Of a stretch of DNA of 48,578 nucleotides, positions 2,673 through 47,637 are shown piece by piece. The stretch's first letter is position 1; each line of letters starts with the position of its first letter. The position numbers and the translations under genes are program-made. Source of the stretch: Acidobacteria bacterium AH-259-O06 (lineage in GTDB: Bacteria > Acidobacteriota > UBA6911 > RPQK01 > JADFOI01); contig JALLOM010000001.1 of NCBI GenBank assembly GCA_027717865.1, positions 1-48,578 on the forward strand, in the 5' to 3' direction. Below the pieces are notes generated by a model. That model saw only the letters and a list, made by a program, of their open reading frames with translations, was not told the origin of the DNA and searched no databases.

Positions 2673-3743
2673 TCACATCAACCCCTGCATGGCTTCCTCC
2701 AGGGCCTCTCGCCCAGGTCGAAGCTTCTCTTGAGGAAGAGCGGCCAAGGCCGTGTCAGGCAAATTTAGCAGGTCTAAAAAGTTCTCCGCCACCGGATTCA
2801 CATAGATCAAGCCCGTCAAAAACTCACCTGAATCCCGGGTCTCATTGAGCATCCGCAAAGCGGCATCTCTATCTGTTGGATTGTAATCTCGATCTACCTT
2901 TCGCAGCCGAATGCGGGAGCCGTCGTGCATCTCGACTTCTCTTAATTCTCCTTCCTCATACACCACCGTTTCAATCGGCTCGAAATGCGGAACAAAGTCG
3001 ATCTGGTGAAGGAGTTCCTCGTGCTCTTTAGCCCACCTGTAGCTCTTGGTGGAACCCTGGTGGTTATTAAAGGTAACACAGGGGCTAAGGACATCCAGCA
3101 TGCTCGTTCCACTGTGACTGAGGGCTCCTTGCAGCAGAGGAACTAGTTGTTTTGGATCCCCGGCATAGGAGCGGGCCACGTAGCTGCATCCCATTTCAAT
3201 GGCCAGGGTACAGCAATCGATCGGCGGTAAGTCATTGACCACCCCGGTTTTTAGTTTGGAACCGGGATCTGCAGTAGCCGAAAACTGTCCTTTCGTCAGT
3301 CCGTAAACACCGTTGTTCTCAATGATATAGATCATGGGGACGTTTCTTCTCAGAAGATGGCAGAACTGTCCCAACCCGATGGATACGGTATCCCCGTCCC
3401 CACTGACTCCGATGCAGACCAATTTCCGATTGGCCAGCACGGCTCCAGTCGCAAGGGAGGGCATACGGCCGTGAACCCCATTGAAAGCATGAGAGTTGCT
3501 GAGAAAATAGGCTGGAGTCTTGCTGGAACAGCCTATTCCGCTCATCTTAGCTACCCGATGGGGGTTTACTCCCATCTCATAAAAGGACTTCATGATCTGG
3601 CTCGATATGGCGTCGTGACCGCAACCAGAGCAAAGTGTAGAGGGTTCTCCCCGGTAGTCGATCATCGTGAGGCCAAGTCGGTTGACTCTTTTAGGTTTCG
3701 GTGCGCTTACCGACATGATGACTCCATTTCTCCTTTCTCGCAC
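2673..3743 (-). CDS. korB: 2-oxoacid:ferredoxin oxidoreductase, beta (TPP-binding) subunit
   Basis: 356-aa ORF with a TPP-binding region GVSGDGDTVSIGLGQF...IIENNGVYGLTKGQ. Lies immediately downstream of the alpha subunit. The true start is probably the ATG at 3716 (MSVSAPKPK), giving a 10-nt overlap with korA. Confidence 0.85.
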   Translation of the reverse strand: MRERRNGVIMSVSAPKPKRVNRLGLTMIDYRGEPSTLCSGCGHDAISSQIMKSFYEMGVNPHRVAKMSGIGCSSKTPAYFLSNSHAFNGVHGRMPSLATGAVLANRKLVCIGVSGDGDTVSIGLGQFCHLLRRNVPMIYIIENNGVYGLTKGQFSATADPGSKLKTGVVNDLPPIDCCTLAIEMGCSYVARSYAGDPKQLVPLLQGALSHSGTSMLDVLSPCVTFNNHQGSTKSYRWAKEHEELLHQIDFVPHFEPIETVVYEEGELREVEMHDGSRIRLRKVDRDYNPTDRDAALRMLNETRDSGEFLTGLIYVNPVAENFLDLLNLPDTALAALPQEKLRPGREALEEAMQGLM

Positions 3744-5566: not shown

Positions 5567-5650
5567 GCTTTTTCTCCTCTTGCGCGCTCGAGTCCTCTAT
5601 TTCTGAGCATATAGATTTTAACAGAGAGCCGCGATCCTTTTCCATTGGAT

Positions 5651-5877
5651 GCCAGGAGCCAGGAGCCAGGAGTCAGAAGCCAGGAGCCAGGAGCACAGGA
5701 GCCAGGAGCACACGAGACAGAATTCAGAATGCAGAAGATTCATTAACAGGTCCAAGCCACATCAGAGCTGAGAAGCTCAAAAGCTCAATAGCTCGAAAGC
5801 TCAATAGCATGAAACCTGGAACCTTCAACCTTCAACTTTCAACCATTCTGGCTCCTGACTCCTGGCTCCTGGCTCCT
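5651..5877. repeat. Mosaic repeat locus: (GCCAGGA)n left arm, (AGCTCAAN)4, (AACCTTC)3, (TGGCTCC)4 right arm
   Basis: Left arm 5651-5736 has about 12 units that decay into CAGAA-type units. An 8-bp-period AGCTCA block is at 5774-5805. ACCTTCA units are at 5821-5841. The right arm at 5849-5876 is complementary to the left arm. Confidence 0.9.
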
Positions 5878-5883
5878 TGACCG

Positions 5884-7443
5884 CTAGTTCACCTTCTCGG
5901 AGATCGACTTGGCCTGGGTGAACAAAAGTAGATAGTCACGACCCCCAGCTTTTGAGTCGGTACCACTCATGTTGAAACCACCGAAAGGATGCACTCCCAC
6001 GAGAGCACCCGTGCATTTGCGATTGATGTACAAATTTCCCACGTGGAATTCTCTTTTGGCTTTTTCGATCTTGGATTTGTTTTGAGTGTACACAGATCCG
6101 GTCAACCCATATTCAGTCTGGTTGGCAATCTCTATTGCCTCATCGTAGTCGCGTGCCCTGATGACCGCCAAAACCGGCCCAAAGACCTCCTCCTGAGCGA
6201 TTGACGCTTTGGGATCTACATCTGAGATGACGGTTGGGCGGACGAAGTATCCTTCAGAACTCCCTGCTTTTCCACCCATCAGCAACTGTCCTTCCGTCCG
6301 TCCGATTTCGATATAACGCAGAATAGAGTCTTGTGCCTTCTGATTGACAACGGCACCAAAATTCACCTCAGGACGCTCCACGTCGCCCTCCTGGATCATG
6401 GTGCACGTTTTCTGCTGAAGCTTCTGCAAGAACTCATCACAAACGGAATCCACAACAATGGCGCGCGAGCAAGCCGAGCATTTCTGGCCCTGATAGCCGA
6501 AGGCCGAAACCACGACAGCCGCGGCAGCCTCATCCAGATTTGATTCATCATCGACCACAATGGCATCTTTCCCACCCATCTCGGCGATGACCCTTTTGAT
6601 CCACATCTGACCCGGCTGGTGCTTGGCTGCCAGTTCGTTGATTCGCAACCCTACTTGCTTGGAGCCGGTGAAGGCAATAAAACGGGTTCTGGGATGTTCC
6701 ACCAGAGCGTCGCCAATTTCTTCTCCACTGCCGGTCAAGAAATTCACCACACCGGGTGGAAATCCCACCTCTTCGACGATCTGCATCAACTGCGCTGCGA
6801 TTGTCGGCGAATCACTGGAAGGCTTCACGATCACAGTGTTTCCGCTAACCAGTGCTGCAAAGGTCATTCCCGAGAGAATGGCCAGAGGGAAATTCCAAGG
6901 TGAAATAATGACACCCACTCCTAAGGGAATATATTCAAGGGCGTTGTCCTCCGACTCGAGTTTGACCAGCGGCTGGGGACCTGCCAGCCGAAGCATCTCC
7001 CCAGAATAAAACTCACAGAAATCGATGGTCTCCGCCACGTCGGCATCCGCTTCCACCCAAGACTTTCCAACCTCCACCACCATCCATGCCGCCAGCTCGA
7101 GCCGGCGCTCTTTCATAATCTGAGAGACCCGCATCACGTATTCGACCCGTTTTGGGGCCGGGACCTGGCTCCAATGTTGAAAGGCTTCTCCTGCAGCCGA
7201 GATGGCCCGCTCAACGAATTCGCGAGTTCCCTTGGGGAAGACCCCCACGACCTCTCCTTTGCGCGAGGGATTTAAGGACTGGAATTGGCTCTCACACCGG
7301 ACTGGTTTTCCTCCGATGATGATGTTGTATTCCCTTCCCAGTTGGCTTCGCACCTTGGCGATGGCGTTTGACATTGCCTGGCGATTCTCCAAGTCTGAAA
7401 AGTCAGTCAAAGGCTGGTTTTTGAATTCACCTAGATTCATCAT
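5884..7443 (-). CDS. pruA: L-glutamate gamma-semialdehyde (1-pyrroline-5-carboxylate) dehydrogenase, aldehyde dehydrogenase family
   Basis: 519-aa ORF. ALDH catalytic motifs EMGGKD and GQKCSACSR. Size and N-terminus match RocA/PruA-type P5C dehydrogenases. Confidence 0.8.
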   Translation of the reverse strand: MMNLGEFKNQPLTDFSDLENRQAMSNAIAKVRSQLGREYNIIIGGKPVRCESQFQSLNPSRKGEVVGVFPKGTREFVERAISAAGEAFQHWSQVPAPKRVEYVMRVSQIMKERRLELAAWMVVEVGKSWVEADADVAETIDFCEFYSGEMLRLAGPQPLVKLESEDNALEYIPLGVGVIISPWNFPLAILSGMTFAALVSGNTVIVKPSSDSPTIAAQLMQIVEEVGFPPGVVNFLTGSGEEIGDALVEHPRTRFIAFTGSKQVGLRINELAAKHQPGQMWIKRVIAEMGGKDAIVVDDESNLDEAAAAVVVSAFGYQGQKCSACSRAIVVDSVCDEFLQKLQQKTCTMIQEGDVERPEVNFGAVVNQKAQDSILRYIEIGRTEGQLLMGGKAGSSEGYFVRPTVISDVDPKASIAQEEVFGPVLAVIRARDYDEAIEIANQTEYGLTGSVYTQNKSKIEKAKREFHVGNLYINRKCTGALVGVHPFGGFNMSGTDSKAGGRDYLLLFTQAKSISEKVN

Positions 7444-7493
7444 TCGTTCTCCGTCGTTTCAATCTTGACGAAGCTCTTGAGCTATGAGCTAGG

Positions 7494-7591
7494 GTAGGGG
7501 CGAGCCGGTGGCTCGCCCGAACAGTTCTCCCTAGATGATAAGCTTATCATCTAGGGAGAACTGTTCGGGCGAGCCACCGGCTCCCCCCTAC
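7494..7591. repeat. REPIN-like 98-bp palindrome: two inverted GTAG-headed REP-like units
   Basis: GTAGGGGCGAGCCGGTGGCTCGCCCGAACAGTTCTCCCTAGATGATAAG and its reverse complement are centred on AAGCTT (one mismatch). Each arm holds its own 9-bp hairpin GGGCGAGCC/GGCTCGCCC. Flanked by TGAGCTA units (7471-7493) and CCTGGCT heptamers (7592-7616). Confidence 0.9.
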
Positions 7592-8918
7592 CCTGGCCCC
7601 TGGCTCCTGGCTCCTGTAAGTCGGGAATCCGCCGGATCACGTCCATAAAGGAGGAAACCGAGAAAACCGCATTTCCAATACCGGGCTTTCCATACCCGGG
7701 TGGCGCATCAAGTTCATACTTTTCATGTGTCTCTCTCCAGGCACGGAGAAGACGAACGTGATACTCGAGAGGAGCCCCTTCTGGATTGAGTTTCCCTAGA
7801 ATACTCAGAGGTTCCGGGCACCACGTTGTGAAGCGAGGAGTAATGCCCTGAGACATGAAAAAGTCCAATCCTTCAGAGGTGGAAGCGACGGCCTCATCTA
7901 CGGTTTCAAAACCGCAGGGCCGAGCCATTTCGATTCCGGCCACGAAATTAGGAATAACACAAGAAGGACCAAGGACTTCCGCGGCATCCAGAATGCGGCG
8001 AATCCACTCGTCACGACCGATGCAACGGTTCTTCCCCGCGCAGATAATTTCAAAGAGCCGCCGGTCCCAGACTTCATAGTTTGGATGGTAGATCTGCACA
8101 CCCACATCCCTGAATCGACACACTTCTTCCCTAGGCAAGGCCTGGACCACCACCTTTGCTATCCACCGACCCGGGAATCGCTTCTCAATCGCTTCCGGGT
8201 ACTGAACATAAAAATCAATCTCACGCATTCCGTTGAGTTGGGAGGTAATGCTTCCTCCTGTCACGGTGTAAGCCTGGCTCTCGGAATCAGCATCGTTGAC
8301 GACTTCCAGGGCTTCCAGGATTTCCTCAACCGTCTTGATGCCAGTGTAAGACCGCCCAGTCTTCTTCTGTTGACGATAGTTCTCATTGATATCGCAGAAT
8401 TGGCACTCTTGTTGATGACCGAAGTACTGGCAAATTCTGAAGACGGTCAAATAGAGTAGATATCCCCACTCGATAGTTGGTGCAATATCCATGATCGGTT
8501 TCCCACTGGCCAGAGTTCGTTGATAATATTCCGGAGTTTTCTCAAACTGGATCCCTGAGAGCTCTTCCTTTTCCAATGTGAGGACCAAATCTGCTTGATC
8601 GGAAATATCGACCCGATAAGGAGAACGCGGATTCAATCGGACAGAAACGATGGTGCGACGAAAATTTCTCGGCCCACCGACTAGGCAGATCTCCTCGGGC
8701 GCCCGCAGGTTCTCCTGCCTCTGCATGTGAGCAATGGGGACCAAATCAAAAGAAAAGATAAAGTACGCTTTGGGCTTGAAGCCGGAAGCTACGCGCAGCG
8801 CATCCTCTGAAAAGGAGATCCCCGTTCGAAGTAGATCTTCCTTAAAGATTGCCTCCGGAGGCAAATCCGAATACTTCTCTATCAACGCGTCAACGAGCTG
8901 TAATCTCTGTACCATCAA
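7551..8918 (-). CDS. Hypothetical protein, radical-SAM-like TIM-barrel with a non-canonical Cys triad; the C-terminal ~23 aa are encoded by repeat DNA
   Basis: 455-aa ORF. Cys cluster CQYFGHQQECQFC (CX8CX2C instead of CX3CX2C), followed by TGGS and NYEVWD..LF..ICAGK...NFVAGIE segments reminiscent of BioB/HydE-type radical SAM cores. The stop codon TAG sits inside the 7494-7591 palindrome. Confidence 0.45.
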   Translation of the reverse strand: MMVQRLQLVDALIEKYSDLPPEAIFKEDLLRTGISFSEDALRVASGFKPKAYFIFSFDLVPIAHMQRQENLRAPEEICLVGGPRNFRRTIVSVRLNPRSPYRVDISDQADLVLTLEKEELSGIQFEKTPEYYQRTLASGKPIMDIAPTIEWGYLLYLTVFRICQYFGHQQECQFCDINENYRQQKKTGRSYTGIKTVEEILEALEVVNDADSESQAYTVTGGSITSQLNGMREIDFYVQYPEAIEKRFPGRWIAKVVVQALPREEVCRFRDVGVQIYHPNYEVWDRRLFEIICAGKNRCIGRDEWIRRILDAAEVLGPSCVIPNFVAGIEMARPCGFETVDEAVASTSEGLDFFMSQGITPRFTTWCPEPLSILGKLNPEGAPLEYHVRLLRAWRETHEKYELDAPPGYGKPGIGNAVFSVSSFMDVIRRIPDLQEPGARGQGRGEPVARPNSSP

Positions 8919-8938
8919 CGCTACAGCCTAACACATTG

Positions 8939-9018
8939 GGTCAGGTAGGGGCCGTGTCTTTAAAATTTAAATTTTGAGGTCAAAATTCAAATTTTAAAGA
9001 CACGGCCCCTACCTGACC
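8939..9018. repeat. 80-bp near-perfect palindrome with GGTCAGGTAGGGG termini
   Basis: 39-nt arms GGTCAGGTAGGGGCCGTGTCTTTAAAATTTAAATTTTGA with a 2-nt centre and one mismatch. Lies between the divergent starts of the 7551-8918 ORF and the TPR gene. Confidence 0.92.
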
Positions 9019-9102
9019 TCGGGCCTCAACTTGACTCCTCTACATCCCATCTTATAATACTTCGTCTTCTGGCTGATCCTAATACAATCACGGGAGGACT
9101 TT

Positions 9103-9762
9103 ATGCCGGCCAAAAGAAGCAAGAAGCAAAAGAGCAAACAGACTAAGAAGAAACCAGCTAAGAAGAAACCGAGTAGCAAAAAACAAGTAAGGAAGAGACC
9201 AACCGGGAAAACACGAGCTGGGAAAAAACAAGTTGGGAAAAAACGAGCTCAAAAACGGGGCAGATCTGAGAAGAAAAGATCTGCCGAGGAGGTTTACCGG
9301 CTTTACAAAGAGGCACTGGCCCTTTTACACCAGAAGAAATATAAGAAAGCCCGCAAACAACTCACTCAGGTGGTGAAAAAGTTTTCTCATGAAATCGAGG
9401 TGGTCGCCCGAGCCAAATCCTTTCTCAGAGTCTGCGACAGAAACCTTCAAGCGAAAGAAGAACCTCCACGGACAGCTGAAGAGATTTTCCATCAAGGCGT
9501 CCTTTACCATAATGCTGGGCAATACGAAAAAGCGCTGCATTGTTATTCTCGTGCTTTGAAGCTTTCGAAAAAGAAGAACGACCACATTTACTACGCCTTG
9601 TCGGCAACTGAGCTTTCCACTGGCAATATCGATAATGCGCTCAAATATCTCAAGAAGGCCATTGAAATCAAAGAGGAGAATCGGTTCTTTGCTCACAACG
9701 ACCCAGATTTCGAGCTCCTCGCTACAAACCAGAAATTCCGGGAACTGATCCATCCAGAGTAA
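9103..9762 (+). CDS. TPR-repeat protein with a histone-H1-like Lys-rich N-terminal domain
   Basis: 219-aa ORF with an SD (GGGAGGA) upstream. The first ~60 aa are about 50% K/R (KKQKSKQTKKKPAKKKPSSKK...). The C-terminal part has TPR-like helices (YHNAGQYEKALHCYSRALKL; GNIDNALKYLKKAIEI). Confidence 0.7.
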   Translation: MPAKRSKKQKSKQTKKKPAKKKPSSKKQVRKRPTGKTRAGKKQVGKKRAQKRGRSEKKRSAEEVYRLYKEALALLHQKKYKKARKQLTQVVKKFSHEIEVVARAKSFLRVCDRNLQAKEEPPRTAEEIFHQGVLYHNAGQYEKALHCYSRALKLSKKKNDHIYYALSATELSTGNIDNALKYLKKAIEIKEENRFFAHNDPDFELLATNQKFRELIHPE

Positions 9763-9861
9763 GCGAGAACAGAATGCATCCTGGGGGGAAGATGAAGAGC
9801 AATGCCTCAGTCTGCGGGGAGATGGGTGATGGCTGGGAGGCCGTTTGTATAGGAGGCAAGG

Positions 9862-11313
9862 ATGGTGGCTAACAAGAATCAGTCGCTGCATCGAAACAAA
9901 CGATATGCCCTCATTCTAGCTGCGGGTCAAAGTATCCGGTTCAAGTCTCTCAAGCCCAAAGTACTGCACCCCCTTTGCGGCAAATCTCTAATCTGCCACG
10001 TCTTGGACAAGCTCAAAGGTTTGAACATCGAGCGAACCTTCGTGGTTATCGGTCCTGATGGTGATGAGGTGAAAAGTGCACTTGGGGGATACCCTGTGAA
10101 TTTTGTTTCCCAAAGCGAGCAATTGGGGACAGGTCACGCGGTAATGGCGGCCGCTCCTCAACTGAGAGATCTCAGGGGAAGCCTTCTCGTGCTCTATGCG
10201 GACACGCCGCTCATTCGAACACAGACGCTGCGGCGACTTCTGAAAACTCGAGAAAAGCATAAGGCCGATCAGGTCTTGTTAACCACTGATTATGAGAATC
10301 CCTCTGGGTACGGCAGAATCATTCGCAATGAAAAGGGCGAGGCGATGGACATCGTTGAAGAAAAGGATGCCAGCGCTGAACAAAAAGCCATTCGCGAAGT
10401 CAACGCCGGCCTTAACTGCTTTAGGATTCCCTCGCTGCTGGAGGCTCTATCACAATTGTCCCCAGCAAACGCTGCCCAAGAGTACTACCTAACAGACATA
10501 CTTCGCATCCTGCGAAACGGCGGAAAGAAAGTCGTAACCATCTCGACTGACCTCCCCAATGAAGCACGGGGAGTTAACAACCGAGAGGAACTCTCACTGG
10601 TTGAGATCAATTTGAGGGCTCAGATTGCTCGAAGATGGATGCTTGAAGGAGTAACCATTCTGAATCCTTCCTCCGTTTACATCGACGAATCTGTCGAACT
10701 CTCTCCAGATGCGATCATTTATCCCGGTGTTCTTCTGGAAGGAAAAACCAAAGTCGGCGCCGGCTGCGTGATCCACAGCTTCTGCCACCTGAAAGACACC
10801 GTTCTCGACCAAGAAGTCATGGTTGACCAGTGCTCTGTGATACGCAACAGCAGCATTGGAAAAAACACCCGGGTAGGCCCTTTTGCTCATTTGCGAGATA
10901 ACACCGTTATCGGGCCTGAAGCCCGCATCGGAAGCTTCGTGGAGGTCAAGAAGTCGCGAATTGGAAAAAGGACCACAGCTGCCCACCTGAGCTACCTGGG
11001 AGACGCTGAAATTGGAAGTCAAGTCAATGTGGGCGCCGGCACGATCACCTGCAACTATGACGGCATCCGGAAGCATAAAACCGTAATCGAGGACCAGGTT
11101 TTTATTGGCAGCGACAGCCAGTTGGTCGCTCCGGTCACGCTCCACCAGGGCTCCTATGTGGCGGCCGGTTCCTCAATTACGGAAGATGTACCTGAGTACG
11201 CCCTAGGAATCGCCCGTGCCAGACAGATCAACAAGGAAGGATGGACGAGACGAAGGGCTGGAGAACAAAAGAAAAAAGAAAAAAGAAAAAAGAAAGAACA
11301 GCAAAAGAGCTGA
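9862..11313 (+). CDS. glmU: Bifunctional UDP-N-acetylglucosamine pyrophosphorylase / glucosamine-1-phosphate N-acetyltransferase
   Basis: 483-aa ORF. N-terminal nucleotidyltransferase motif LILAAGQSIRFKS, GTGHAV, and C-terminal left-handed beta-helix hexapeptide repeats. Extra Lys-rich tail QKKKEKRKKKEQQKS. Confidence 0.9.
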   Translation: MVANKNQSLHRNKRYALILAAGQSIRFKSLKPKVLHPLCGKSLICHVLDKLKGLNIERTFVVIGPDGDEVKSALGGYPVNFVSQSEQLGTGHAVMAAAPQLRDLRGSLLVLYADTPLIRTQTLRRLLKTREKHKADQVLLTTDYENPSGYGRIIRNEKGEAMDIVEEKDASAEQKAIREVNAGLNCFRIPSLLEALSQLSPANAAQEYYLTDILRILRNGGKKVVTISTDLPNEARGVNNREELSLVEINLRAQIARRWMLEGVTILNPSSVYIDESVELSPDAIIYPGVLLEGKTKVGAGCVIHSFCHLKDTVLDQEVMVDQCSVIRNSSIGKNTRVGPFAHLRDNTVIGPEARIGSFVEVKKSRIGKRTTAAHLSYLGDAEIGSQVNVGAGTITCNYDGIRKHKTVIEDQVFIGSDSQLVAPVTLHQGSYVAAGSSITEDVPEYALGIARARQINKEGWTRRRAGEQKKKEKRKKKEQQKS

Positions 11314-11564
11314 CCACAGACCAGGAGACAGAAGACAGGAGTCAGGAGACAGAAGTCAGGAGTCAGGAGTCAGAATCCAGAATTCAGAATAACTAACTTG
11401 AATTTCATGAGCTGTCCCAACCGTTCCCAGCGTCGAATGGGATGATGAGGAAAAAACTTAACTTAACTTCATGTTTTGACCAAACAATCTTCTCCTGTGC
11501 GTTCATATTCTGATCCTGTCTCCTGACTCCTGACTCCTGTCTTCTGTCTCCTGGTCTGTGGTCA
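11311..11564. repeat. Inverted heptamer arms (38 bp perfect, about 60-80 bp imperfect) enclosing a ~115-nt core; the termini include both convergent stop codons
   Basis: Left arm TGACCACAGACCAGGAGACAGAAGACAGGAGTCAGGAG... at 11311-11390. The reverse complement of 11507-11564 begins with the identical 38 nt. TGA of glmU (11311-11313) and TGA of carB (11564-11562) are the first 3 nt of each arm. Confidence 0.92.
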
Positions 11565-14500
11565 GTGCTGTGCGGCTGGTTGCCTCTCAAGCGCATGGTA
11601 TTCCTGCAAACTTTTGACGCTGATCTCTTCTCGCTGCAGCGCGCGGATTGCATTGACAGCGGCAGCAGCGGCTGAAAGGGTGGTTATACAGGGTGTACCG
11701 TACTGCGTACAAGCCCTACGAATGGCTTTTTCATCAAAAAAGGACTCCCGTCCTAAAGGAGTATTGACCACCAAATCGATTCTTTTGCTTTTAATGAGAT
11801 CAACGACATTTGGACGACCTTCGTTGACCTTGTAAACCGTTTCTGTTTCAAGGTCTGATTCACGCAACACTTTGGCCGTTCCGCGGGTAGCCACAATCTG
11901 AAAGCCAAGTTCCTGGAAATCTCTGGTGATATTGGAAATGAAACGTTTGTCCCTCTGGTTCACACTGATAAAAACGACGCCTCCTTGCGGGAGATGCACG
12001 CCGGCGCTGATCTGAGCTTTGGCATAAGCGTACCCGAAGCTTTCTGAAGCGCCCATCACCTCGCCGGTCGACTTCATTTCGGGCCCCAGGATGGTGTCGA
12101 CTCCTGGGAACTTATTGAAAGGAAAGACAGGAGTTTTGATAAAACAATAGCGAACTTGCAGATCCTGGGTAAGACTCAGCTCTTGGAGCTTTTGACCAAT
12201 CATCAGCTGGGCGGCCACCTTCGCCAAGGGCACCCCAGTGGCTTTGCTTACAAATGGAACAGTTCGACTGGCCCGTGGATTAACCTCCAAAACGTACACT
12301 TTATCGCCAACCACGGCAAACTGGACGTTCATCAGCCCGACTACACCCAGTGTCTGCCCCAGTTTGCGCGTATATTCTCGCATGGTTTCCAGGTGTTCTT
12401 CCTGGATCACAATGGGAGGCAAGACTGAAGTACTATCGCCGGAGTGGATACCTGCCTCTTCAATGTGCTCCATGATGCCGCCAATCACGACCCTGCTTCC
12501 ATCAGCCAGTGCATCAACATCGTATTCGCGGGCATCCTCGAGAAACTTGTCGATCAGAACAGGATGTTCCGGAGACACGTCCACGGCGGAACTGACGTAC
12601 TTGTCGAGTGACTTTTCATCAAAAATGATGGCCATCGCCCGGCCCCCCAACACATAGGATGGTCTCACCAAAACGGGATAACCGATTTTTTGGCCGATTT
12701 CCCTGGCTTCCTCCACCGACATGGCGGTGCCGTTGTCAGGCTGGGGGATGTTGAGGTCACGCAGCAGCTGCCCGAATCTCTTGCGATCCTCCGCCAGGTC
12801 AATCGACTCGGGAGAAGTTCCAATGATGGGCACGCCGGCGTCAAAAAGCTTTAAGGCCAGCTTGAGAGGAGTTTGTCCACCAAACTGGACGATAACCCCA
12901 TCCGGTTTTTCTTTCTCTACAATGGCCATCACATCCTCAAAACTCAGTGGCTCAAAGTAGAGTCGATCCGAGGTGTCATAGTCTGTGGACACCGTCTCCG
13001 GATTGCAGTTGACCATAATGGTCTCAAATCCCGCCTCTTTCAAAGCGAAGGCGGCGTGGCAACAGCAATAGTCAAACTCAATTCCCTGGCCGATGCGATT
13101 AGGCCCGCTTCCCAGAATAATGATCTTCCGGCGCTCGGAAGGTTCTGTCTCATCCTCTCGTTCATAAGTGGAGTAAAGGTAAGGCGTATAGGACTCAAAT
13201 TCTGCTGCACAGGTGTCAACACATTTAAAGACCGGCAGGATGCCGTGCCCTTTCCGATAATTCCACAAATCCAACTCAGTCAGTGAGGGACCGAGAATCT
13301 GGGCTAGGCGAAGGTCCGAAAAACCCTCTCGCTTTGCCTGGCGTACCAACTCGGGGTCGATGGTCTCCAGATCCTCTTTGCCCAAGCTCTGGCCAAACCT
13401 GATGATCTGGAAAATCTGGTTGAGGAACCAGCGATCGATCTTCGTCAACTCGTGAATCTCATCGAGACTGTAACCCTCCAAAAAGGCCAAGCGAATGTAA
13501 GCTAATCGCTGAGGTGTGGGCTGAATTAGATTTTCCCGAATCCGCTCTTTCGAAACTTTTTCACTGGCCAAAGTCTTTCCCGTTTCCTGAGAGCGCAAAC
13601 TTTTGAGCAGGGCTTCACGGAAAGTTCGGCCGATGGCCATCACTTCCCCTACCGATTTCATCTGAGTACCCAGAATGGTGCTGGCTTCCGGAAATTTCTC
13701 GAAATTCCACTTGGGCATTTTCACCACCACGTAATCCAGAGTAGGCTCGAAACAGGCAGGGGTCTTCAGAGTGATGTCGTTAGGAATCTCGTCCAATGTA
13801 TAACCGACGGCCAATTTGGCAGCGATCTTGGCAATAGGAAAACCAGTGGCTTTTGAGGCAAGTGCCGAGCTTCTGCTCACTCGCGGATTCATCTCGATAA
13901 CGACCATCCTTCCCGTTTCTGGATGAACGGCGAACTGAATGTTCGCTCCACCCGTCTCCACGCCCACTTTGCGGATGATGGCAATGGCGGCATCACGCAT
14001 AAGCTGGTACTCTTTGTCAGACAGAGTTTGGGCGGGGGCGACGGTAATGGAATCGCCCGTGTGCACTCCCATGGCGTCAAAATTCTCAATGGAGCAGATG
14101 ATCACGACATTGTCATTCAGGTCGCGCATGACTTCGAGCTCAAATTCCTTCCAGCCGATGATCGATTCCTCGACCAGGATTTCGTGAATGGGAGAGAGCT
14201 GAAGTCCGCGGCTGGCAATTTCTTCAAACTCTTCGCTGTTGAAAGCGATTCCACCTCCAGTTCCCCCAAGAGTGTAGGAGGGACGAATCACGGCAGGAAG
14301 TCCAATCTTGTCGACAATTCCGGCAGCCTCTTTAAGGCTGTTGGCAAATCCAGATCGAGGTACTTCCAGGCTGACCTCTTCAATAGCAGTCCTGAAAAGG
14401 CGACGATCCTCGGCCACCCTGATTGCATTCAATTTAGCGCCGATCATTTCGACGCCAAATTGATCCAGAATCCCCTCTTCACACAGTTCGACCGAAACAT

Positions 14501-14789
14501 TCAGTCCAGTCTGGCCACCCACAGTGGGTAGCAAAGCATCCGGACGCTCGCGCTTGATAATTTCCCCCACATACTCGCTGGTGAGAGGCTCAATGTAGGT
14601 CCGTGTGGCAAACTCCGGATCTGTCATGATGGTGGCCGGATTGGAGTTGACCAGCACTACCTGAAAACCGTCGCTCAGGAGAGCTTTGCAGGCTTGAGTT
14701 CCTGAGTAATCAAACTCGCAGGCTTGGCCGATGATAATCGGGCCCGATCCCACGATGAGGATTTTGCTGATATCGGTTCTTTTAGGCAT
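11562..14789 (-). CDS. carB: Carbamoyl-phosphate synthase large subunit
   Basis: 1075-aa ORF with a duplicated ATP-grasp architecture. N-terminus [30 protein letters not shown] is characteristic of CarB. Confidence 0.97.
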
Positions 14790-14796
14790 CGATTTT

Positions 14797-14918
14797 TAAG
14801 CTATTAAGCTTTTGAGCTAGAGTAGGGGCGAGCCGGTGGCTCGCCCGAACAGTTCTCGCTAGATGATTAGTTCGGGCGAGCCACCGGCTCGCCCCTATCC
14901 TGGCTCCTGACTCCTGAC
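14797..14918. repeat. Second, truncated copy of the GTAG-REPIN module with the same flanks
   Basis: TAAGCTA/TTGAGCTA units are followed by GTAGGGGCGAGCCGGTGGCTCGCCCGAACAGTTCTCGCTAGATGATTAG (from 14822). Next come a shortened inverted arm TTCGGGCGAGCCACCGGCTCGCCCCTAT (to 14898) and then TCCTGGC/TCCTGAC heptamers. Confidence 0.9.
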
Positions 14919-14923
14919 CCCCA

Positions 14924-16021
14924 TCACGCATCAGCGCCTTCTTTCATTAGGCGAATGAAATCGTCAAACAAATAGAACGAATCGTGTGGTCCCGGAGAGG
15001 CTTCGGGATGGTACTGAACCGAAAAAACGGGAAGATAGCGATGCCGAAACCCTTCAAGCGTCTGGTCGTTCAGGTTCATGTGAGTGATTTGAATCTCCGT
15101 GTTCTTGAGTGAGTCAGGATCAACTGCAAAACCGTGGTTGTGGGTGGTAATCTCCACTTTACTATTGATCAGGTTTTTCACCGGTTGGTTACCTCCCCGG
15201 TGTCCAAATTTCAGTTTGTAGGTTTTCCCTCCCAAGGCCAACGCCAGCAATTGGTGTCCCAAACAGATTCCGAAGATCGGTTTTTTGCCTATCAATTTTC
15301 TGAAATTCTCCACGATGTACTGCAGCGGTTCGGGGTCCCCGGGGCCGTTGGAAAGGAAAATGCCATCCGGATCCAATGCCAGTACGTCCTCAGCACTGGT
15401 CACGGCCGGAACAACAGTGAGATCACACCCTCGGCCAGCCAAGCAGCGCAATATATTCGTCTTAATGCCAAAATCATAGGCAACGACACGGAACCGAGGA
15501 TTTTCGGCAGGCCAAGTGTAGGTCTCAGTCACAGTGACGGAGCGTACATAGTCGCTTCCTTCCATAGGAGGATGCTCGTGTACTTTCCGTCCTAACGACT
15601 GCAGATCGAAATCATCCCTGGAGATAATACCGCGCATGGCTCCCCCCTCACGAATGTGGCGAACCAGGGCACGCGTATCGATCTCGGCAATACCCGGAAT
15701 GGAATTTTCTCTGAGGTAGTCATCCAAGGTTTTCTCCCCTCTCCAGTTGCTAAAAATCGGGCTGCACTGGCGCACGACAAAGCCTTCCACAAAGGGCTTT
15801 CGCGACTCGTCGTCCTCTGAATTGATCCCATAGTTCCCAATCTCCGGCTGAGTCATCACCACAACTTGGCCGGCATAGGAAGGGTCGGTCAAAACCTCCT
15901 GGTAGCCTGTCATGGAAGTGTTGAAGACCACTTCCCCCAGGCACTCCCCTTCCACCCCAAACCCAAGGCCTTCAAACAACGTTCCATCTTCCAGATAAAG
16001 AAGTGCTTTTTGCGTTTTCAT
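14924..16021 (-). CDS. carA: Carbamoyl-phosphate synthase small (glutamine amidotransferase) subunit
   Basis: 365-aa ORF with the GATase active-site region GICLGHQLL and the QYHPEA motif. Adjacent to carB. Confidence 0.95.
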
Positions 16022-16026
16022 ATGAC

Positions 16027-16214
16027 TAGAATCTAGAATCCAGAATCCAGAATCCAGAAGTCAGAATTCAGAAGCCAGAATGCTGACCACCTGACCGCCT
16101 GACCTAATGTTGTCTCTTGCTCGTTGGTCAGCCGGTCAGCCTTTCGCTTGTCCGCAGACTTATGAGTTTTCCATCTCGCCTTCTGAATTCTGGATTCTGG
16201 ATTCTGGATTCTGT
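16027..16214. repeat. Nested inverted arrays: outer (CCAGAAT)8 / (ATTCTGG)4-5, inner (CTGACC)3 / (GGTCAG)2
   Basis: Left CTAGAAT/CCAGAAT/TCAGAAT units at 16027-16082, then GCTGACCACCTGACCGCCTGACC. Complementary TTGGTCAGCCGGTCAGCC is at about 16125-16142. The right arm CTTCTGAATTCTGGATTCTGGATTCTGGATTCTG is at about 16181-16214. Confidence 0.9.
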
Positions 16215-16219
16215 TCCCC

Positions 16220-16813
16220 TCAGTGAATCAATCCTAGCTTTGACAAAGGCCAGTAACGAAAGATGGCTTCACCGAAGATGTTCTCTTTTGGAACACAGCC
16301 CCAGTTTCGACTATCGTTACTGGAGCTTCGGTGGTCTCCCAGCACAAAGAAATAATTGGGAGGCACAACCTCGGGGGGATAAGATTCATAGTCGAAATAT
16401 TCCGGTGGAATGTAAGTCTCCGCTAACCTTTCCCCATTGATATAAACAACTCCCGACCGGATCTCAACCGTTTCACCCGGAAGACCAATCACTCGCTTGA
16501 TGAAGGACTTTGTCAGGTCCCTCGGAGGCCAGAAAACAACAATGTCTCCTCGTTCGATGTTTGAAAAATGATAGACGAATTTGTTTACAAAGATTCGGTC
16601 CTGTGCTCGGAGTTTAGGCTCCATGCTGGTGCCTTCCACTTTCACCGGCTGCACAATGAAAATCACTATCAAAACCGCGGTCAGCGCCGCAAAAAAGATG
16701 TCTCTCACCCAACCTTGAAGCTCTCGAAAGAGAGACAAAGGATCCTCTGTAGTCCCTTTTTTTTCGCTGGACTCAACTGTCCGACCAGGAAATAAATCCC
16801 GCTGCACCGACAT
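16220..16813 (-). CDS. lepB: Signal peptidase I
   Basis: 197-aa ORF with an N-terminal TM helix, the catalytic Ser box GTSMEP, the KRVIGLPGE box and the GDHRSSSNDSR box. Confidence 0.9.
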   Translation of the reverse strand: MSVQRDLFPGRTVESSEKKGTTEDPLSLFRELQGWVRDIFFAALTAVLIVIFIVQPVKVEGTSMEPKLRAQDRIFVNKFVYHFSNIERGDIVVFWPPRDLTKSFIKRVIGLPGETVEIRSGVVYINGERLAETYIPPEYFDYESYPPEVVPPNYFFVLGDHRSSSNDSRNWGCVPKENIFGEAIFRYWPLSKLGLIH

Positions 16814-16840
16814 CGTGCGCTACTCCTGTCCTCTCTAAAT

Positions 16841-16994
16841 CGGAGTTAACTCCGAAACGGATAACAGTCTTTCCTGCTTTCGTGCTGTCGTGCTTTCGTG
16901 CTGTCGGTCGCCTGAGGAGGACGCCACGACAGCACGAAGGCACGAAGGCACGAAAACACGAAAGCACGAAGTCTGTCACGCATTTCGGAGTTAC
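16841..16994. repeat. CACGAAG-family inverted heptamer arms, plus the CGGAGTTAACTCCG palindrome
   Basis: Left arm CTGCTTTCGTGCTGTCGTGCTTTCGTGCTGTCG (about 16875-16907). Right arm CGACAGCACGAAGGCACGAAGGCACGAAAACACGAAAGCACGAAG (about 16927-16971). A 14-bp perfect palindrome is at 16841-16854, and TCGGAGTTA recurs at about 16985. Confidence 0.9.
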
Positions 16995-17216
16995 GTGTGC
17001 AACCAAGCATTGTAGATAACATATTTGGAAAACCGAAAACAACCGTTTTGTCCGCTTTTATCCGCTGTTCGTACTACCTTCGTCTTGTTACACTCCCGGG
17101 GTTTATGACTCTTGCAGCCCGAAAAAAGTTGCAATAGGCAGAAAAAGTTTGATTCATCTTTTGCAGAAATTTCCCTTGTGGACGGTCGGACTGTTGAGCC
17201 AGAATCAGTGAGGACT

Positions 17217-17240
17217 GATTACTGAAACCATTCAGTAATC
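17217..17240 (+). promoter_or_regulatory. Perfect 10-bp stem / 4-nt loop hairpin in the pdaD leader
   Basis: GATTACTGAA-ACCA-TTCAGTAATC ends 4 nt before the GGAGGAG Shine-Dalgarno and 17 nt before the TTG start. Confidence 0.5.
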
Positions 17241-17257
17241 ATGCGGAGGAGTGAGCA

Positions 17258-17815
17258 TTGGCACTGTTCATTGCAAAGGAAGTCTTTTTGACGAAGGGTG
17301 TAGGCAAGCACCAGGAAAAGCTAACCAGTTTCGAGATGGCTTTGCAAAATGCCGGTATCGCTGCTTTTAACATCGTTCGGGTTTCCAGTATCTTTCCGCC
17401 TCACTGCAAGTTAATCTCGAAAAAACAAGGATTGAAAAAGCTCAAACCGGGTCAAATCGTCTTTTGTGTCATGAGCGACGCGGCCACCGACGAGCCAAAC
17501 CGTCTCATTGCGGCAGCTGTCGGTATCGCCATGCCCAAGGATGCCAACCAGTATGGCTACCTCAGTGAACATCATAGTTACGGACAAACAGAAAGGGTTG
17601 CTGGAGATTACTCTGAAGATATCGCCGCCGAGATGCTGGCGATAACCTTGGGAGTCGATTTTGACCCTTCTCAAAGTTGGGACGAGAAAAGAGAGCTCTG
17701 GCGAATCTCAGGTCAAATTGTCAGAACCAGAAACATCACCCAATCGGCGATAGGTGACAAAGACAGATTGTGGTCCACGGTTGTAGCCTCAGCCGTCTTT
17801 GTCCCCGGAGAATAG
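17258..17815 (+). CDS. pdaD: Pyruvoyl-dependent arginine decarboxylase
   Basis: 185-aa ORF with a TTG start 6 nt after GGAGGAG. Self-cleavage site region NIVRVSSIFPP matches the PdaD family signature (N.IR.SSI.PP). Confidence 0.85.
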   Translation: MALFIAKEVFLTKGVGKHQEKLTSFEMALQNAGIAAFNIVRVSSIFPPHCKLISKKQGLKKLKPGQIVFCVMSDAATDEPNRLIAAAVGIAMPKDANQYGYLSEHHSYGQTERVAGDYSEDIAAEMLAITLGVDFDPSQSWDEKRELWRISGQIVRTRNITQSAIGDKDRLWSTVVASAVFVPGE

Positions 17816-17821
17816 CCACCC

Positions 17822-18379
17822 TCAAACCTCGATAATTTCCTTTTCCTTTTGATCTGCCAACACGTCAATCTCTTTGATGTGCTCGTCGGTAATTTTCTGC
17901 ACTTCACCTAGAGCATGGTATTCCATGTCTTCGGAAATTTCTTTCTCTCTGAGTAACCTTTTGAGCTTCTCGTTGGCATCTCGACGAATGTTGCGGATGG
18001 CGGTACGGTGATCCTCGGCAACTTTTCCCACCTGTCTCGCCAAAGATTCTCGCCTTTCTTGAGTCAGTGCAGGAATCGGAATACGAATGATCCGACCGTC
18101 ACTAGAAGGATTCAGGCCAAGATCGGAAGCCAGGATGGCCTTTTCAATGTTATGAATCTGGGAAGTATCCCAGGGCTGAACGGTGATTAGGCTGGGTTCC
18201 GGAACATGCAGGGTAGCAAGCTGGTTGATGGGAGTTCGGCTACCATAATAGTCCACACTAACGTGGTCCAGAAGATGAACTGAGGCTCGTCCTGTGCGAA
18301 TTCCCGCCAGCTCCCTGGTTAGGTCTTCCAAGGTTTTTTGCATTCGCTGCTTTGTCTCTGAAAGGATCTCTTTGATCAT
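17822..18379 (-). CDS. frr: Ribosome recycling factor
   Basis: MIKEILSETKQRMQKTLEDLTRELAGIRTGRAS is a canonical Frr N-terminus. The ORF-track start at 18436 (TTG) lies inside the 18388-18452 palindrome and is rejected. Confidence 0.92.
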   Translation of the reverse strand: MIKEILSETKQRMQKTLEDLTRELAGIRTGRASVHLLDHVSVDYYGSRTPINQLATLHVPEPSLITVQPWDTSQIHNIEKAILASDLGLNPSSDGRIIRIPIPALTQERRESLARQVGKVAEDHRTAIRNIRRDANEKLKRLLREKEISEDMEYHALGEVQKITDEHIKEIDVLADQKEKEIIEV

Positions 18380-18387
18380 AGGTAGGG

Positions 18388-18452
18388 GGTCAGGTATGGG
18401 ATTTTGGCATTTCGCCACTTTTGGGCGAAATGCCAAAATCCCATACCTGACC
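18388..18452. repeat. 65-bp perfect hairpin palindrome with GGTCAGGTATGGG termini
   Basis: 29-nt arms GGTCAGGTATGGGATTTTGGCATTTCGCC with a 7-nt loop. It shares its terminal 13 nt (one substitution) with the 8939-9018 element but has a different core. Lies between the pyrH stop and the frr start. Confidence 0.92.
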
Positions 18453-18468
18453 CCGAATCCCCCCGGGG

Positions 18469-19239
18469 CTAGCTGGCGATGATTGATCCCACATCTCGCC
18501 CCATCACCGCCTCTTTGATATTTCCTTCACGGCGCAAGTTGAAAACGATGATGGGAAGCCCATTGTCCATGCACAAGGAAATGGCGGTGGTATCCATTAC
18601 CCTCAGACCTTTCTCCAATACTTGCAAATAGGTTAGCTTCTTAAAAAGCTTGGCCTTCTGGTTCTCTGACGGGTTGGAGTCGTACACCCCATCCACCTTC
18701 GTGGCCTTTAAAATCACCTCTGCTTTGATCTCCATGGCTCTCAAAGCGGCGGCTGTGTCGGTGGAAAAGTAAGGGTTACCGGTCCCTGCCGCCAAGATGA
18801 CCACCCTCTTTTTTTCCAGGTGACGAATTGCTCTCCTTCGGATGAAAGGCTCTGCCACCTCAGCCATTTGGATGGCACTTAGTACCCGAGTATAAATGCC
18901 ATTCTTCTCCAGAGTACCTTGCAGAGCGAGGGCGTTAATCACAGTGGCCAGCATACCCATGTAATCCCCGGTAGCTCGATCAAAGCCGGCTTCGCTGACC
19001 TTGACACCACGTATGATATTTCCTCCCCCAACAACAATGGCAATTTCAACGCCGAGTTCATAGACTTCTTTGATCTCGCGGGCGATGTTCTGCATCATCG
19101 ACGGGTCCGCCCGGGATTCTTGAAAACCCATGAGGGCCTCCCCGCTGAGTTTGATGAGGACTCTCTTGTATCGAGGCTTTTCGATTTCGACAGGTTCCAT
19201 GACCACGGTTTGCTTTTCCCCCACCGCTCCTCCTGTCAT
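18469..19239 (-). CDS. pyrH: UMP kinase
   Basis: [12 protein letters not shown] and GGGNIIRG motifs. Start set to the ATG at 19239 (SD-like GGAAAAAGG upstream), because the track start at 19338 overlaps tsf by 62 nt. Confidence 0.92.
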
Positions 19240-19276
19240 ACTACCTTTTTCCTGCAGTAAAAAGTGTGAAGGCTTC

Positions 19277-19870
19277 TTATTCCCCGACCTTAAAGCGAGC
19301 GAACCGTCTCGTTGAGATATTCTCTTTGAAGGTCGCAATCTTGGACTTTATCAATTCCTCAACGGTCAGCTCGGGACCCTTAATAAACGGCTGCTCGTAC
19401 AGGCAGACTTCAGAATAATATTTATTGAGCTTTCCTTCAACTATTCTGTCCACAACTTTTTCAGGTTTTCCTGCAGCGAGCGCCTGCTTACGGTAGATCT
19501 CTCGTTCTTTTTCCACTTCTTCCTGGCTAACATCTTCGCGCCGGACATAGGAGGGATTTGCAGCGGCGATTTGCATGGCAATATCGCGGACCAATTCTTG
19601 AAATTCCTCAGTACGTGCGACAAAGTCCGTTTCGCAGTTCACTTCCACCAGAACTCCTAACTTTCCTCCGGCGTGGATATATTGACCGATAATCCCTTCC
19701 CGAGTTTCCCGAGCTGCTCTTTTCTCCGCAGCCGCCAGACCTCGCTCTCGAAGAATGGTGATGGCTTTCTCGAAATCGCCTTGTGCCTGGGCAAGGGCCT
19801 TTTTACATTCCATCATTCCAGCACCAGTCTGATCTCGTAGTTCTTTTACCTGTTGCGCGGTAATAGCCAT
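19277..19870 (-). CDS. tsf: Translation elongation factor Ts (short form)
   Basis: 197-aa ORF. N-terminal UBA-like motif [19 protein letters not shown]. Conserved rpsB-tsf-pyrH-frr synteny. Confidence 0.95.
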
Positions 19871-19906
19871 GAATTTCCTCCCTGTGCGCGGTAAGATGGC
19901 GGGATT

Positions 19907-21169
19907 TTAAGATTTGGCCTTGACCTTCGCTGCGTCCTTTTCAGGCTCAGGCGAAGCGCCGGCACCGGCAGATGACTTTTTAGAAGCGCTCTTTTTACTG
20001 CCTTCCGACTTGGCCTGGCGCTTACTGGTCTTGGTCTTTGGGGGAGTGCTCTTTTTCTTTTTGGTTGCTGTCTTCTGGGACTTTGCCTTAGATTTCTCTT
20101 TTTTGGCCCCTTTAGCCGCTTTTGTCTTTTTCGTCTCCCCTTTGGATTTTTTCGCCTGTGCCTTCCTTCTGGGTTTCCTGGCTTTTTTCTCTTCTTCCTT
20201 CTCTTTTTTCATCTCCTGGACCGGGGCGGGTTCCTCCTCTTTTTCTTCTTCACCAGAGTCGACGGATTCGGCGGCTTTAAGGGCCACGGACTTCTCCCCC
20301 ACCTCGGCTTCCTTTTCTTCCTCAGCGGCAATCTTCTTTTCAGCAGGCACTGCTGATGTCGCTTCAGCTTTCACTTCAACAGCCCTCTTGGCAGCCTCCT
20401 TCGCTTCCCTGGCTGCTTCGCGCTGAGCTGCCTCCTTTGCAGCTCTCTCCCGAGCGTCTTTCGTTTCAGCTTCCACACGAGCTTCGTATATGGCCTTTCC
20501 TGCCAGGATGGCGTCGGCAATAGTTTGGGCAAACAATTTCACGGCTCTCAGGGCATCATCGTTGCCCGGAATAACGTAGTCGATTAAATCTGGATCACTG
20601 TTGGTATCGACAACGGCAATGATGGGGATCTTGAGCTTGGAAGCCTCTTTGACAGCAATATCCTCTTGATTTGAGTCCACCACAAACAGAGCATCGGGAC
20701 ACCGATTCATTTCTTTGATGCCCCGCAAATTCTTCTCCAATCGTTTCCTTTCACGTTCCAATCGCGCCACTTCTTTCTTTGACAGCTTTTCGTAAAAGCC
20801 GTTGTCCCTCATGGACTCGAGTTCCTGATAGCGTTTGATGCTGTTCTGAACAGTGGAAAAATTAGTGAGAAGTCCGCCTAACCACCGATTGTTCACGAAG
20901 TACATGCCACAGCGACAGGCTTCCTCCTCGATCGTCTCCTGAGCCTGACTTTTTGTCCCAACGAAAAGAACCGTTTTGCCCTGGGCCGCTAAATGGGTAA
21001 CAAAGTTGACCGCTTCCTTAAAGAGCCTGAGTGTTTTTTGCAAGTCAATGATGTGAACACCATTGCGCTGCCCGAAGATATAAGGTTTCATTTTTGGGTT
21101 CCAGCGACCAGTCTGATGCCCAAAATGAACCCCAGCCTCCAGCAATTGTTTGATCGAGATTGCTGCCAA
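19907..21169 (-). CDS. rpsB: 30S ribosomal protein S2 with a ~190-aa low-complexity K/A/E-rich C-terminal extension
   Basis: N-terminal 225 aa are canonical S2 ([19 protein letters not shown]...). The remainder is charged low complexity, first acidic (EEEKEEE) and then Lys-rich. Confidence 0.95.
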
Positions 21170-47570: not shown

Positions 47571-47637
47571 GCTGTTGAGCTGTGTAGCGTCCGCTCTGAG
47601 AGCGGACACTACAGCCCCCTGACTCCTGGCTCCTAAC

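Follow-up and report, generated by a model that had tools for sequence, protein, structure and literature searches.

A probable REPIN-type REP doublet in the carA-carB spacer of an acidobacterium, its sister copy and its turnover among close relatives

Introduction

The described systems closest to the element analyzed here are the REPs of RAYT subclass 2.4, whose hallmarks are three G-C pairs at the stem base, double-foot forms, REPs lying inside genes, and a patchy distribution across phyla (Quentin et al. 2018, PMC6006769). The same study proposed that doublets can be converted into double-foot forms. REPINs of Groups 2 and 3 are mostly inherited vertically (Bertels et al. 2017, PMC5581495). 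Cleavage by TnpA(REP) is guided by GTAG and occurs at CT or CA dinucleotides outside the hairpin, and in S. maltophilia a mutation of the first foot position (CTAG) lowers cleavage (PMC8266576).

We analyzed a stretch of 48,578 nt (the window; contig C1) from Acidobacteria bacterium AH-259-O06, whose genome (G000) is a 3.6-Mb draft of 508 contigs with 72.6% completeness. An initial annotation had described positions 14797-14918, between carA and carB, as a second, internally truncated copy of a GTAG module at 7494, and had read the conserved orientation of both copies relative to transcription as a sign of targeted insertion or function. Our comparisons indicate that the element is very probably a canonical-length REP doublet of the REPIN type (14822-14898), non-autonomous and of the kind mobilized by RAYT/TnpA(REP).

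Results

Anatomy of the element

The REP doublet proper spans 77 nt (14822-14898) between the carA stop (14924) and the carB start (14789). The sequence annotated at 14797-14918 is real, but that extent takes in flanks on both sides. Two mutually inverted hairpins, each consisting of GTAG plus GGGCGAGCC-NNN-GGCTCGCCC, make up the element. The left unit (14822-14846, + strand) joins a GTAG foot at 14822-14825, as expected of a GT[AG]G-footed REP, to a 9-bp stem in which GGGCGAGCC pairs with GGCTCGCCC across a GGT loop, and it equals the consensus 25-mer of the family exactly. It is followed by an asymmetric 27-nt spacer, GAACAGTTCTCGCTAGATGATTAGTTC (14847-14873, + strand), which fits the family pattern GAAC-N-GTTCTCGCTGCATGTTTGGTTC over its whole length and contains a variant, CTAGATGAT, common to this element and the 7494 copy only. 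The right unit (14874-14898, - strand) is inverted and keeps a perfect stem. Its single mismatch (ATAGGGGCGAGCCGGTGGCTCGCCC) turns the foot into ATAG rather than GTAG, which reads CCCCTAT on the + strand; most units of the family have GTAG/CTAC.

The palindrome expected of a single-stranded DNA substrate is present as a perfect 9-bp stem with a 3-nt loop, and the predicted DNA fold of the doublet reaches -42.3 kcal/mol (z -12.5). The stem starts with GGG and ends with CCC, as at the stem base of subclass 2.4, and double-foot forms coexist with it in the family. A 21-nt core has four sites in the window against zero in 100 shuffles. Rfam gave no family match across the window at gathering thresholds.

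Both neighboring genes lie on the minus strand and were identified by Pfam: carA (14924-16021), the upstream gene, encodes the small chain of carbamoyl-phosphate synthase, and carB (11562-14789), the downstream gene, encodes the large chain. An arm of AGCT units (TTAAGCTA TTAAGCTT TTGAGCTA GA; 14790-14821) fills the space from the carB start to the element. On the other side, an arm of CTCCTGR heptamers (14899-14923) reads GGGGG TCAGGAG TCAGGAG CCAGGA on the sense strand, immediately 3' of the carA stop. Each arm is a resident feature of the spacer, found in a congener (G001) that has no REPIN there. Around its start (14786-14800), carB is without a recognizable Shine-Dalgarno sequence (TTAAAAATCGATG), and sister-genus genomes (among L145-L155) have AAGGAG 4-5 nt upstream. 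In one complete relative, carA and carB abut directly.

Copies in the genome and the family

The core hairpin has 66 candidate loci in the genome, 53 after filtering, which are single units or inverted doublets. Its stem, GGGCGAGC, is the dominant one among GTAG-footed GC-rich hairpins of the genome (49 units). Single units often have GTAG on one side and CTAC on the other, and seven singlets with both are "double-foot" forms. Units were counted with the pattern GTAGGGGCGAGCC-NNN-GGCTCGCCC, one mismatch allowed, which gave 70 in this genome (32 forward, 38 reverse) and 48 in the congener. The same pattern found 1-16 units in five of seven sister-genus genomes, a single match in one genome of a third genus of the family, and none in 26 genomes from other families of the order; the reversed-pattern control gave none.

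Inverted REPs at fixed spacing, the arrangement that defines REPIN doublets, recur throughout the family. When all 28 doublets were aligned, 20 of the 28 measured 76-78 nt, a range that includes the present copy at 77 nt. Doublets of 82 nt (seven) form a subfamily with a different spacer, two doublets measure 67-68 nt, and the one 98-nt form is the 7494 copy.

Position relative to genes is strongly non-random. Intergenic loci account for 46 of the 53, three overlap gene ends, and four lie within called ORFs (P about 3e-33), as judged by a rough codon-usage ORF picker that called 83% of the sequence coding, so that the four loci "inside genes" may be false ORFs. The initial annotation had held that copies with random orientation and random position would speak against a conserved arrangement. 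On position the arrangement holds, but the two strands are used about equally (32 versus 38 units, no significant bias). Spacers with REP loci are co-directional in 27 cases, convergent in 10 and divergent in four, where spacer length predicts 22.8, 7.0 and 11.3 (p = 0.03, divergent spacers being mildly under-used); relative to spacer number, the difference is not significant. Where its orientation is clear in co-directional contexts, the asymmetric spacer is antisense to transcription in five cases and sense in one, which is not significant, and two of the five share one subfamily.

Taken together, the GTAG foot, the GC-rich palindrome, the inverted doublets, the extragenic copies and the restriction to one lineage identify the anatomy as that of REPs and REPINs.

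In two REP subfamilies, conservation extends over long flanks particular to each. Those of the first read ...gtcgcaaaag...ttcattttggtttcg-GTAG...CTAC-aggacttttgcgacaccc, and those of the second ...ctcggtcggcctcctcagcgtacc-GTAG...CTAC-c.ggccggcgctttcgccgcttcgtgacgag. Members of these subfamilies occur in this genome on contigs C77, C216, C284, C474, C480 and C65 (at 2637), and on C29, C75, C101, C119, C137, C148, C384 and C502. Their extended similarity suggests that the two subfamilies are larger composite elements.

The sister copy at 7494

The second copy in the window (7494-7591) is 98 nt long and has one stem mismatch in its right arm. Its spacer, asymmetric by origin, has become a perfect palindrome: the left 21 nt of the family spacer are followed by AAGCTT and then by their own reverse complement. 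Its neighbors, by Pfam, are an aldehyde dehydrogenase gene (pruA-like, 5884-7443) and a radical-SAM-like ORF (7551-8918). In the whole assembly, GTTCTC[CG]CTAGATGAT occurs in the two window copies only, and this private variant makes them each other's closest relatives. Each has a private defect in the same arm: the ATAG foot in the carA-carB copy, and a C-to-G stem mismatch in the 7494 copy.

Much of what had been noted about the pair is borne out by this comparison. The two are copies of one module, with flank order and gene context alike at both sites. Over 46 positions from 14822 onward, the left arm and half-spacer differ from those of the 7494 copy by a single C/G change (45 identical). 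The right arm is without a 20-21-nt block of the 7494 copy and ends in CCCCTAT, hence its ATAG foot. One copy sits between the minus-strand carA stop and carB start, the other between the radical-SAM-like gene and the start of the pruA-like gene, and at both, AGCT-containing 7-8-mers precede the element in window coordinates and CTCCTGR heptamers come after it. The flanks align for about 25 nt on each side, giving 86% identity over 161 columns. The shared flank order cannot be counted as two independent observations, as had been implied, since the copies are sisters with a private spacer variant and homologous flanks. The carA-carB copy is the sister of the 7494 copy and probably its donor-like form.

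Comparison with a close congener

The congener, a member of the same genus, is 65% complete and 1.6% divergent. Its contig C212 (L163) is collinear with window positions 2686-20033 (269 substitutions in 16,964 aligned bases). An exact 143-nt block of AGCT units, REPIN and CTCCTGR heptamers (7477-7619) has an empty orthologous site in the congener; it consists of TTGAGCTATGAGCTAGG, the REPIN, and CCTGGCCCCTGGCTCCTGGCTCCTGTAA. The boundaries of the insert are exact, and no target-site duplication of the kind seen in a classical MITE borders them. Sister-genus genomes are compact at the 7494 junction, with neither REPIN nor repeat arrays, and the 143-nt insert is therefore the derived state.

The insertion point is within the final codons of the radical-SAM-like gene, and the gene's stop codon is now part of the REPIN. 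The encoded protein ends ...IPDELGQD* in the congener and ...IPDLQEPGARGQGRGEPVARPNSSP* here. In the window (7551-7620), the last 22 codons are made of CAGGAGC heptamers and a REPIN arm, which replace the ...ELGQD* tail. By sequence comparison, a variable C-terminal tail has here tolerated a REP insertion.

At the carA-carB site, the flanking protein ends of the two congeners are 99-100% identical and the outer spacer is the same: in G001, GGGGG-TCAGGAG-CCAGGAG follows the stop, and AGCTTAAT-AGCTCAAT-AGCTTAA precedes the ATG. About 66 nt of heptamers (AATCCAG, AACTCAG, AACTTAG) take the place of the REPIN in the middle. As the congener has the flanks and no REPIN, the flanks are resident and the carA-carB REPIN is a recent arrival. 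Neither the congener nor any of the 12 other family genomes examined has a REPIN in this spacer. Across the family its extent varies, the extremes being an overlap of 4 nt and some 200 nt of mixed heptamer arrays. Both window copies are thus absent at the orthologous congener sites, as expected of mobile elements, and on this sequence evidence they arrived after the split from the 1.6%-divergent congener.

Turnover extends beyond the window. Of about nine resolved orthologous REP sites, six are lineage-specific and three are shared. Of the shared three, the first is unchanged between the genomes, the second differs by decay of an arm, and the third is found as a doublet in G001 and as a rearranged double-foot form in G000. 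At the last (C176:1139-1190 in G000, L197:848-924 in G001), the congener has a canonical doublet, and our genome a double-foot single hairpin with a partial REP, 26 nt shorter. From an alignment of two present-day states, we read this site as a direct example of doublet-to-double-foot conversion.

Other differences between the two genomes concern whole spacers or repeats. Between genes that are 97-99% identical, an entire spacer differs (C78:5589-5811 in G000, L118:5561-5865 in G001): the congener has GAGTTTT heptamers and a double-foot REP composite, and our genome has GGTTYCA/AACCTKG arm pairs around an unrelated small palindrome. To judge from the two sequences, this is cassette-like spacer turnover. 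An 80-nt insert at 18385-18464, absent from the congener, belongs to a different palindrome family, is almost perfectly self-complementary (GGGGTCAGGTATGGGATTTTGGCATTTCGCC...GGCGAAATGCCAAAATCCCATACCTGACCCC) and is probably another miniature foldback element. Within the gene at 9103-9762 (+ strand), near 9147, the congener has an extra in-frame 39 nt of AAGAAACCAGCT-type repeats relative to G000; this repeat is length-variable and rich in lysine and proline.

RAYT genes and the same REP in other phyla

Searches with PF01797 and with the proteins of two REP-flanked RAYTs found no RAYT homologue in either G000 (72.6% complete) or G001 (65%). PF01797 misses true RAYT homologues in two Chloroflexota genomes, so that absence by Pfam alone is uninformative. 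Its sole match in our genome is a 56-aa fragment of an IS200-type transposase (C2:11042-11212; L001, 1489-1659) with no adjoining REP. A C-terminal remnant of a Y1 gene (C243:2937-3145), also without an adjoining REP, is of a type that is intact in the congener (L012) and is possibly class 3 of Quentin et al. Two further leads were rejected. Between two REPs 1.3 kb apart on C499, the gene encodes an FG-GAP-type protein rather than a RAYT, and none of the Y1_Tnp genes of family relatives detected by PF01797 (L008-L015) is flanked by a REP with the GGGCGAGCC stem.

Within the sister genus (g2), RAYT and REP occur together in four genomes and neither occurs in two near-complete genomes; the exception, G008, has 11 REP units and a weak RAYT match. 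The RAYTs of these acidobacteria are flanked by a different stem (GGGCGCAC; GTAGGGGCGCAC). REPs lie in frame inside the RAYT genes of four family relatives (L174, L175, L177, L178), as in subclass 2.4, but with the sister stem GGGCGCAC.

The exact 25-mer GTAGGGGCGAGCCGGTGGCTCGCCC is also found in MAGs and complete chromosomes of several phyla (L020-L095, G041-G045), namely Chloroflexota and MAGs labelled Patescibacteria, FCPU426, Bacteroidota, Armatimonadia and others. Five such genomes have 397, 202, 123, 65 and 43 copies, the maximum of 397 being reached in Chloroflexota. In these other phyla the 25-mer often forms BIME-like direct arrays, and the associated RAYT proteins are 30-47% identical. 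Two of the arrays (L038, L077) were considered as CRISPR-like; their interspaces are themselves repeated and their units are GTAG-footed, which identifies them as BIME-like REP arrays. Conservation of one REP core across phyla was not found in the literature on RAYT and REP examined here.

A Phototrophicaceae chromosome contains REPtrons (L171, L169), in which RAYT-like genes have inverted GTAG REPs with the exact GGGCGAGCC stem on both sides. Closely related stems flank RAYT paralogues in G041 and G045. Stems of the types GACCC, GACCT, GAGGC or GACAC accompany other paralogues, and L165, L166 and L170 have near variants of the stem. RAYT clade and stem co-vary in two well-supported pairs from different genomes. 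L137 holds a 185-aa RAYT-like protein with HUH and Y motifs, a homologue of the RAYTs at L171 and L169. Seven REPs of identical core adjoin it as an array, on the 3' side only and with GTAT/GTAA feet. Against NCBIfam REP_Tyr_transpos, the protein scores 55.6 bits, below the 80-bit cut-off.

By this linkage, the doublet would be mobilized as single-stranded DNA by a HUH-tyrosine enzyme of the RAYT/TnpA(REP) type, and we infer such movement in G000. Because the CTAG foot mutant of S. maltophilia is cleaved less, the ATAG arm would be a weakened substrate by analogy, and its foot probably makes one arm poorly suited to further mobilization.

Route of copying

Two features count against RAYT cut-and-paste in the window. 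At 7494, flank repeats are part of the insertion, whose boundaries do not fall cleanly at GTAG/CTAC; at carA-carB, the REPIN replaces other sequence instead of being cleanly inserted. The copies may therefore have been made by a different route. The pair could instead have arisen by copying a composite block (heptamer arm, REPIN and AGCT arm) through template switching or gene conversion between nearby spacers, a possibility that we regard as unlikely on balance. It would account for the 7477-7619 insert being a single 143-nt block with both arms, and for the same orientation of two copies separated by 7.3 kb on one strand. Homology continues past GTAG/CTAC for about 25 nt on each flank, and at the left junction it runs into native sequence (AAGCTC in the target, AAGCTA at carA-carB). 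The palindromized spacer of the 7494 copy is a signature of hairpin-templated strand switching, no target-site duplication is present, and whole spacers differ as cassettes between the congeners. However, the arms are fast-changing low-complexity repeats, with about 10 array indels in 17 kb, such that their similarity could have arisen after insertion. The right junction is without clear microhomology, and some flank can travel with a REP, as TnpA(REP) cleaves at CT/CA outside the hairpin (PMC8266576). Given the homology into native sequence at the left junction, we keep block copying as a serious rival for the 7494 copy.

Also rather unlikely is the idea that what turns over in this genus is a spacer "cassette" and not the bare REPIN. 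Such a cassette would be a polar heptamer foldback whose apex can hold a REPIN, with YCAGGAG-type units on the stop side and, ahead of the following start, complementary or AGCT-type ones. If so, 7477-7619 would be one cassette copied whole from a donor like the carA-carB spacer, and the 32:1 polarity of the arms would suggest a mechanism or function tied to transcription or RNA and outside current REP/RAYT models.

Heptamer arrays beside the element

The arms belong to a population of 309 period-7 tandem arrays that cover 13.9 kb genome-wide, with almost none at periods 5, 6 or 9-12. Array units are mostly CAGNNNN and intergenic, and often form inverted arm pairs. Examples in the window lie at 105-181, 5651-5877, 11311-11564, 14899-14923 and 47611-47632. 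CTCCTGR triplets are abundant in the genus (85 and 59 matches) and sporadic elsewhere.

These arrays are polar. Considering those no more than 30 nt from a gene boundary, YCAGGAG occurs after stops 32 times in sense and once in antisense orientation, and next to starts nine times in antisense and once in sense. YCAGAAK arrays have a similar polarity: both kinds are sense after stops at about 30:1-3 and have the complementary form before starts. A heptamer array lies within 60 nt at 4-5 of the 53 REP loci, compared with 10.5% of all spacers. REP loci thus have arrays at background frequency, and the transcription-linked polarity therefore belongs to the arrays and not to the REP family. The orientation relative to transcription that had been ascribed to the module is accordingly genuine as a polarity, but it is a property of the heptamer arrays. 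On these sequence counts, the AGCT units and CTCCTGR heptamers are a separate, polar heptamer-repeat system outside the REP family.

Effects at the RNA level

The sense-strand RNA of the carA-carB spacer is predicted to fold with -87.3 kcal/mol (z -9.8), with short helices formed by the spacer arms drawing the carA stop close to the carB start. For the sister copy the predicted fold reaches -135 kcal/mol. Rho-independent terminator and promoter readings were rejected for want of consensus sites: neither element has a terminator-like or promoter-like site, and no U-tract follows, the sense strand continuing CCCCUACUCUAGCUCAAAAGC. With no U-tract, no promoter-like site and a carB gene that must be expressed, we infer read-through. 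From the model fold, the element is probably not a terminator on the carA-carB transcript, and its effect would not go beyond a barrier to 3' exonucleases or an uncoupling of carA and carB translation.

In E. coli malEFG, REPs stabilize upstream mRNA. A comparable selected role in carAB RNA, with the hairpin acting as terminator, attenuator or mRNA stabilizer in an orientation fixed for that role, would fit the high predicted stability (-87.3 kcal/mol), the start of the hairpin 25 nt after the carA stop, and the missing AAGGAG Shine-Dalgarno of relatives at carB. Such a role is nevertheless improbable. The congener spacer, between proteins 99-100% identical, is without the hairpin, which is likewise missing from the 12 other family genomes examined; the stem is not followed by a U-tract; the same element occupies about 50 unrelated spacers and, once, a coding 3' end; and the orientation bias of the spacer (5:1) is not significant.

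That the carA-carB copy arose by a deletion within a longer, 98-nt module, as "internally truncated" had implied, is very improbable and contradicted by the family as a whole. Pairwise comparison with the 7494 copy is all that speaks for it: the extra block is missing in 27 of the 28 doublets of the genome, the carA-carB copy has the modal family length with a spacer that follows the family pattern in full, and the block in the 7494 copy, the unique 98-nt form, is the reverse complement of its own left half-spacer.

Discussion

We regard the carA-carB element as very probably a REPIN-type doublet on the strength of its observed anatomy, family membership and copy statistics, its presence here and absence in the congener, and the REPtron linkage of its stem elsewhere. 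Its appropriate annotation is REP doublet, as opposed to regulatory site or truncated relic. In the radical-SAM-like gene at 7551, the 3' end is an insertion artefact caused by the sister copy. New in this work are the corrected polarity of the supposed truncation and the dating of presence and absence by a congener, together with the 143-nt block in a coding 3' end at the sister copy and the attribution of polarity to heptamer arrays.

Two genomes 1.6% apart provide a clean natural experiment on the gain, loss and remodelling of REPINs. The kinds of remodelling seen include conversion of a doublet to a double-foot form, palindromization, and insertion into a coding 3' end. Several phyla have this 25-nt REP together with REPtrons. 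Less well understood are the polar heptamer arrays, which are worth separate study.

Among known systems, RAYT subclass 2.4 (PMC6006769) is closest. The likeness lies in the GTAG foot, the long perfect stem, the double-foot forms (GTAG...CTAC) and the patchy occurrence across phyla, as well as in the in-frame REPs in RAYT genes of family relatives and the REPtrons of several genomes; the assignment to this subclass was made by hallmarks and not by profile. In contrast to that system, no RAYT was found in the incomplete assemblies of this genome and its congener, and the sister-genus RAYTs carry GGGCGCAC.

The REPINs of Pseudomonas fluorescens SBW25 and the REP/BIME elements of E. coli (Bertels and Rainey 2011, cited in PMC5581495; PMC8266576) are similarly inverted doublets that form one long hairpin, are extragenic and dispersed in tens of copies, use a GTAG guide tetranucleotide, and mix vertical inheritance with recent gain or loss. 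They differ in sequence and in RAYT group, theirs being Groups 2 and 3. Relative to E. coli, the stem here is perfect and is without the bulge that the E. coli enzyme requires. An identical 25-mer across several phyla, as seen here, was not found reported for Group 2/3 REPINs.

The subterminal hairpins of IS200/IS605 share the combination of hairpin and 5' guide tetranucleotide, single-stranded DNA recognition by a Y1 HUH enzyme, and the lack of target-site duplication. Unlike those elements, the unit described here is 77 nt long and has no transposase between its hairpins.

The flanks, in turn, resemble the cyanobacterial STRR and the GGGAATC arrays of Xanthomonas and Nostoc (PMC4692102) in being tandem arrays of period 7 concentrated in intergenic DNA. 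The units differ, being here YCAGGAG, YCAGAAK, CAGGTTY, GAGCTWT and others. In this genome, such arrays also often form inverted arm pairs and keep a strict polarity to the upstream gene.
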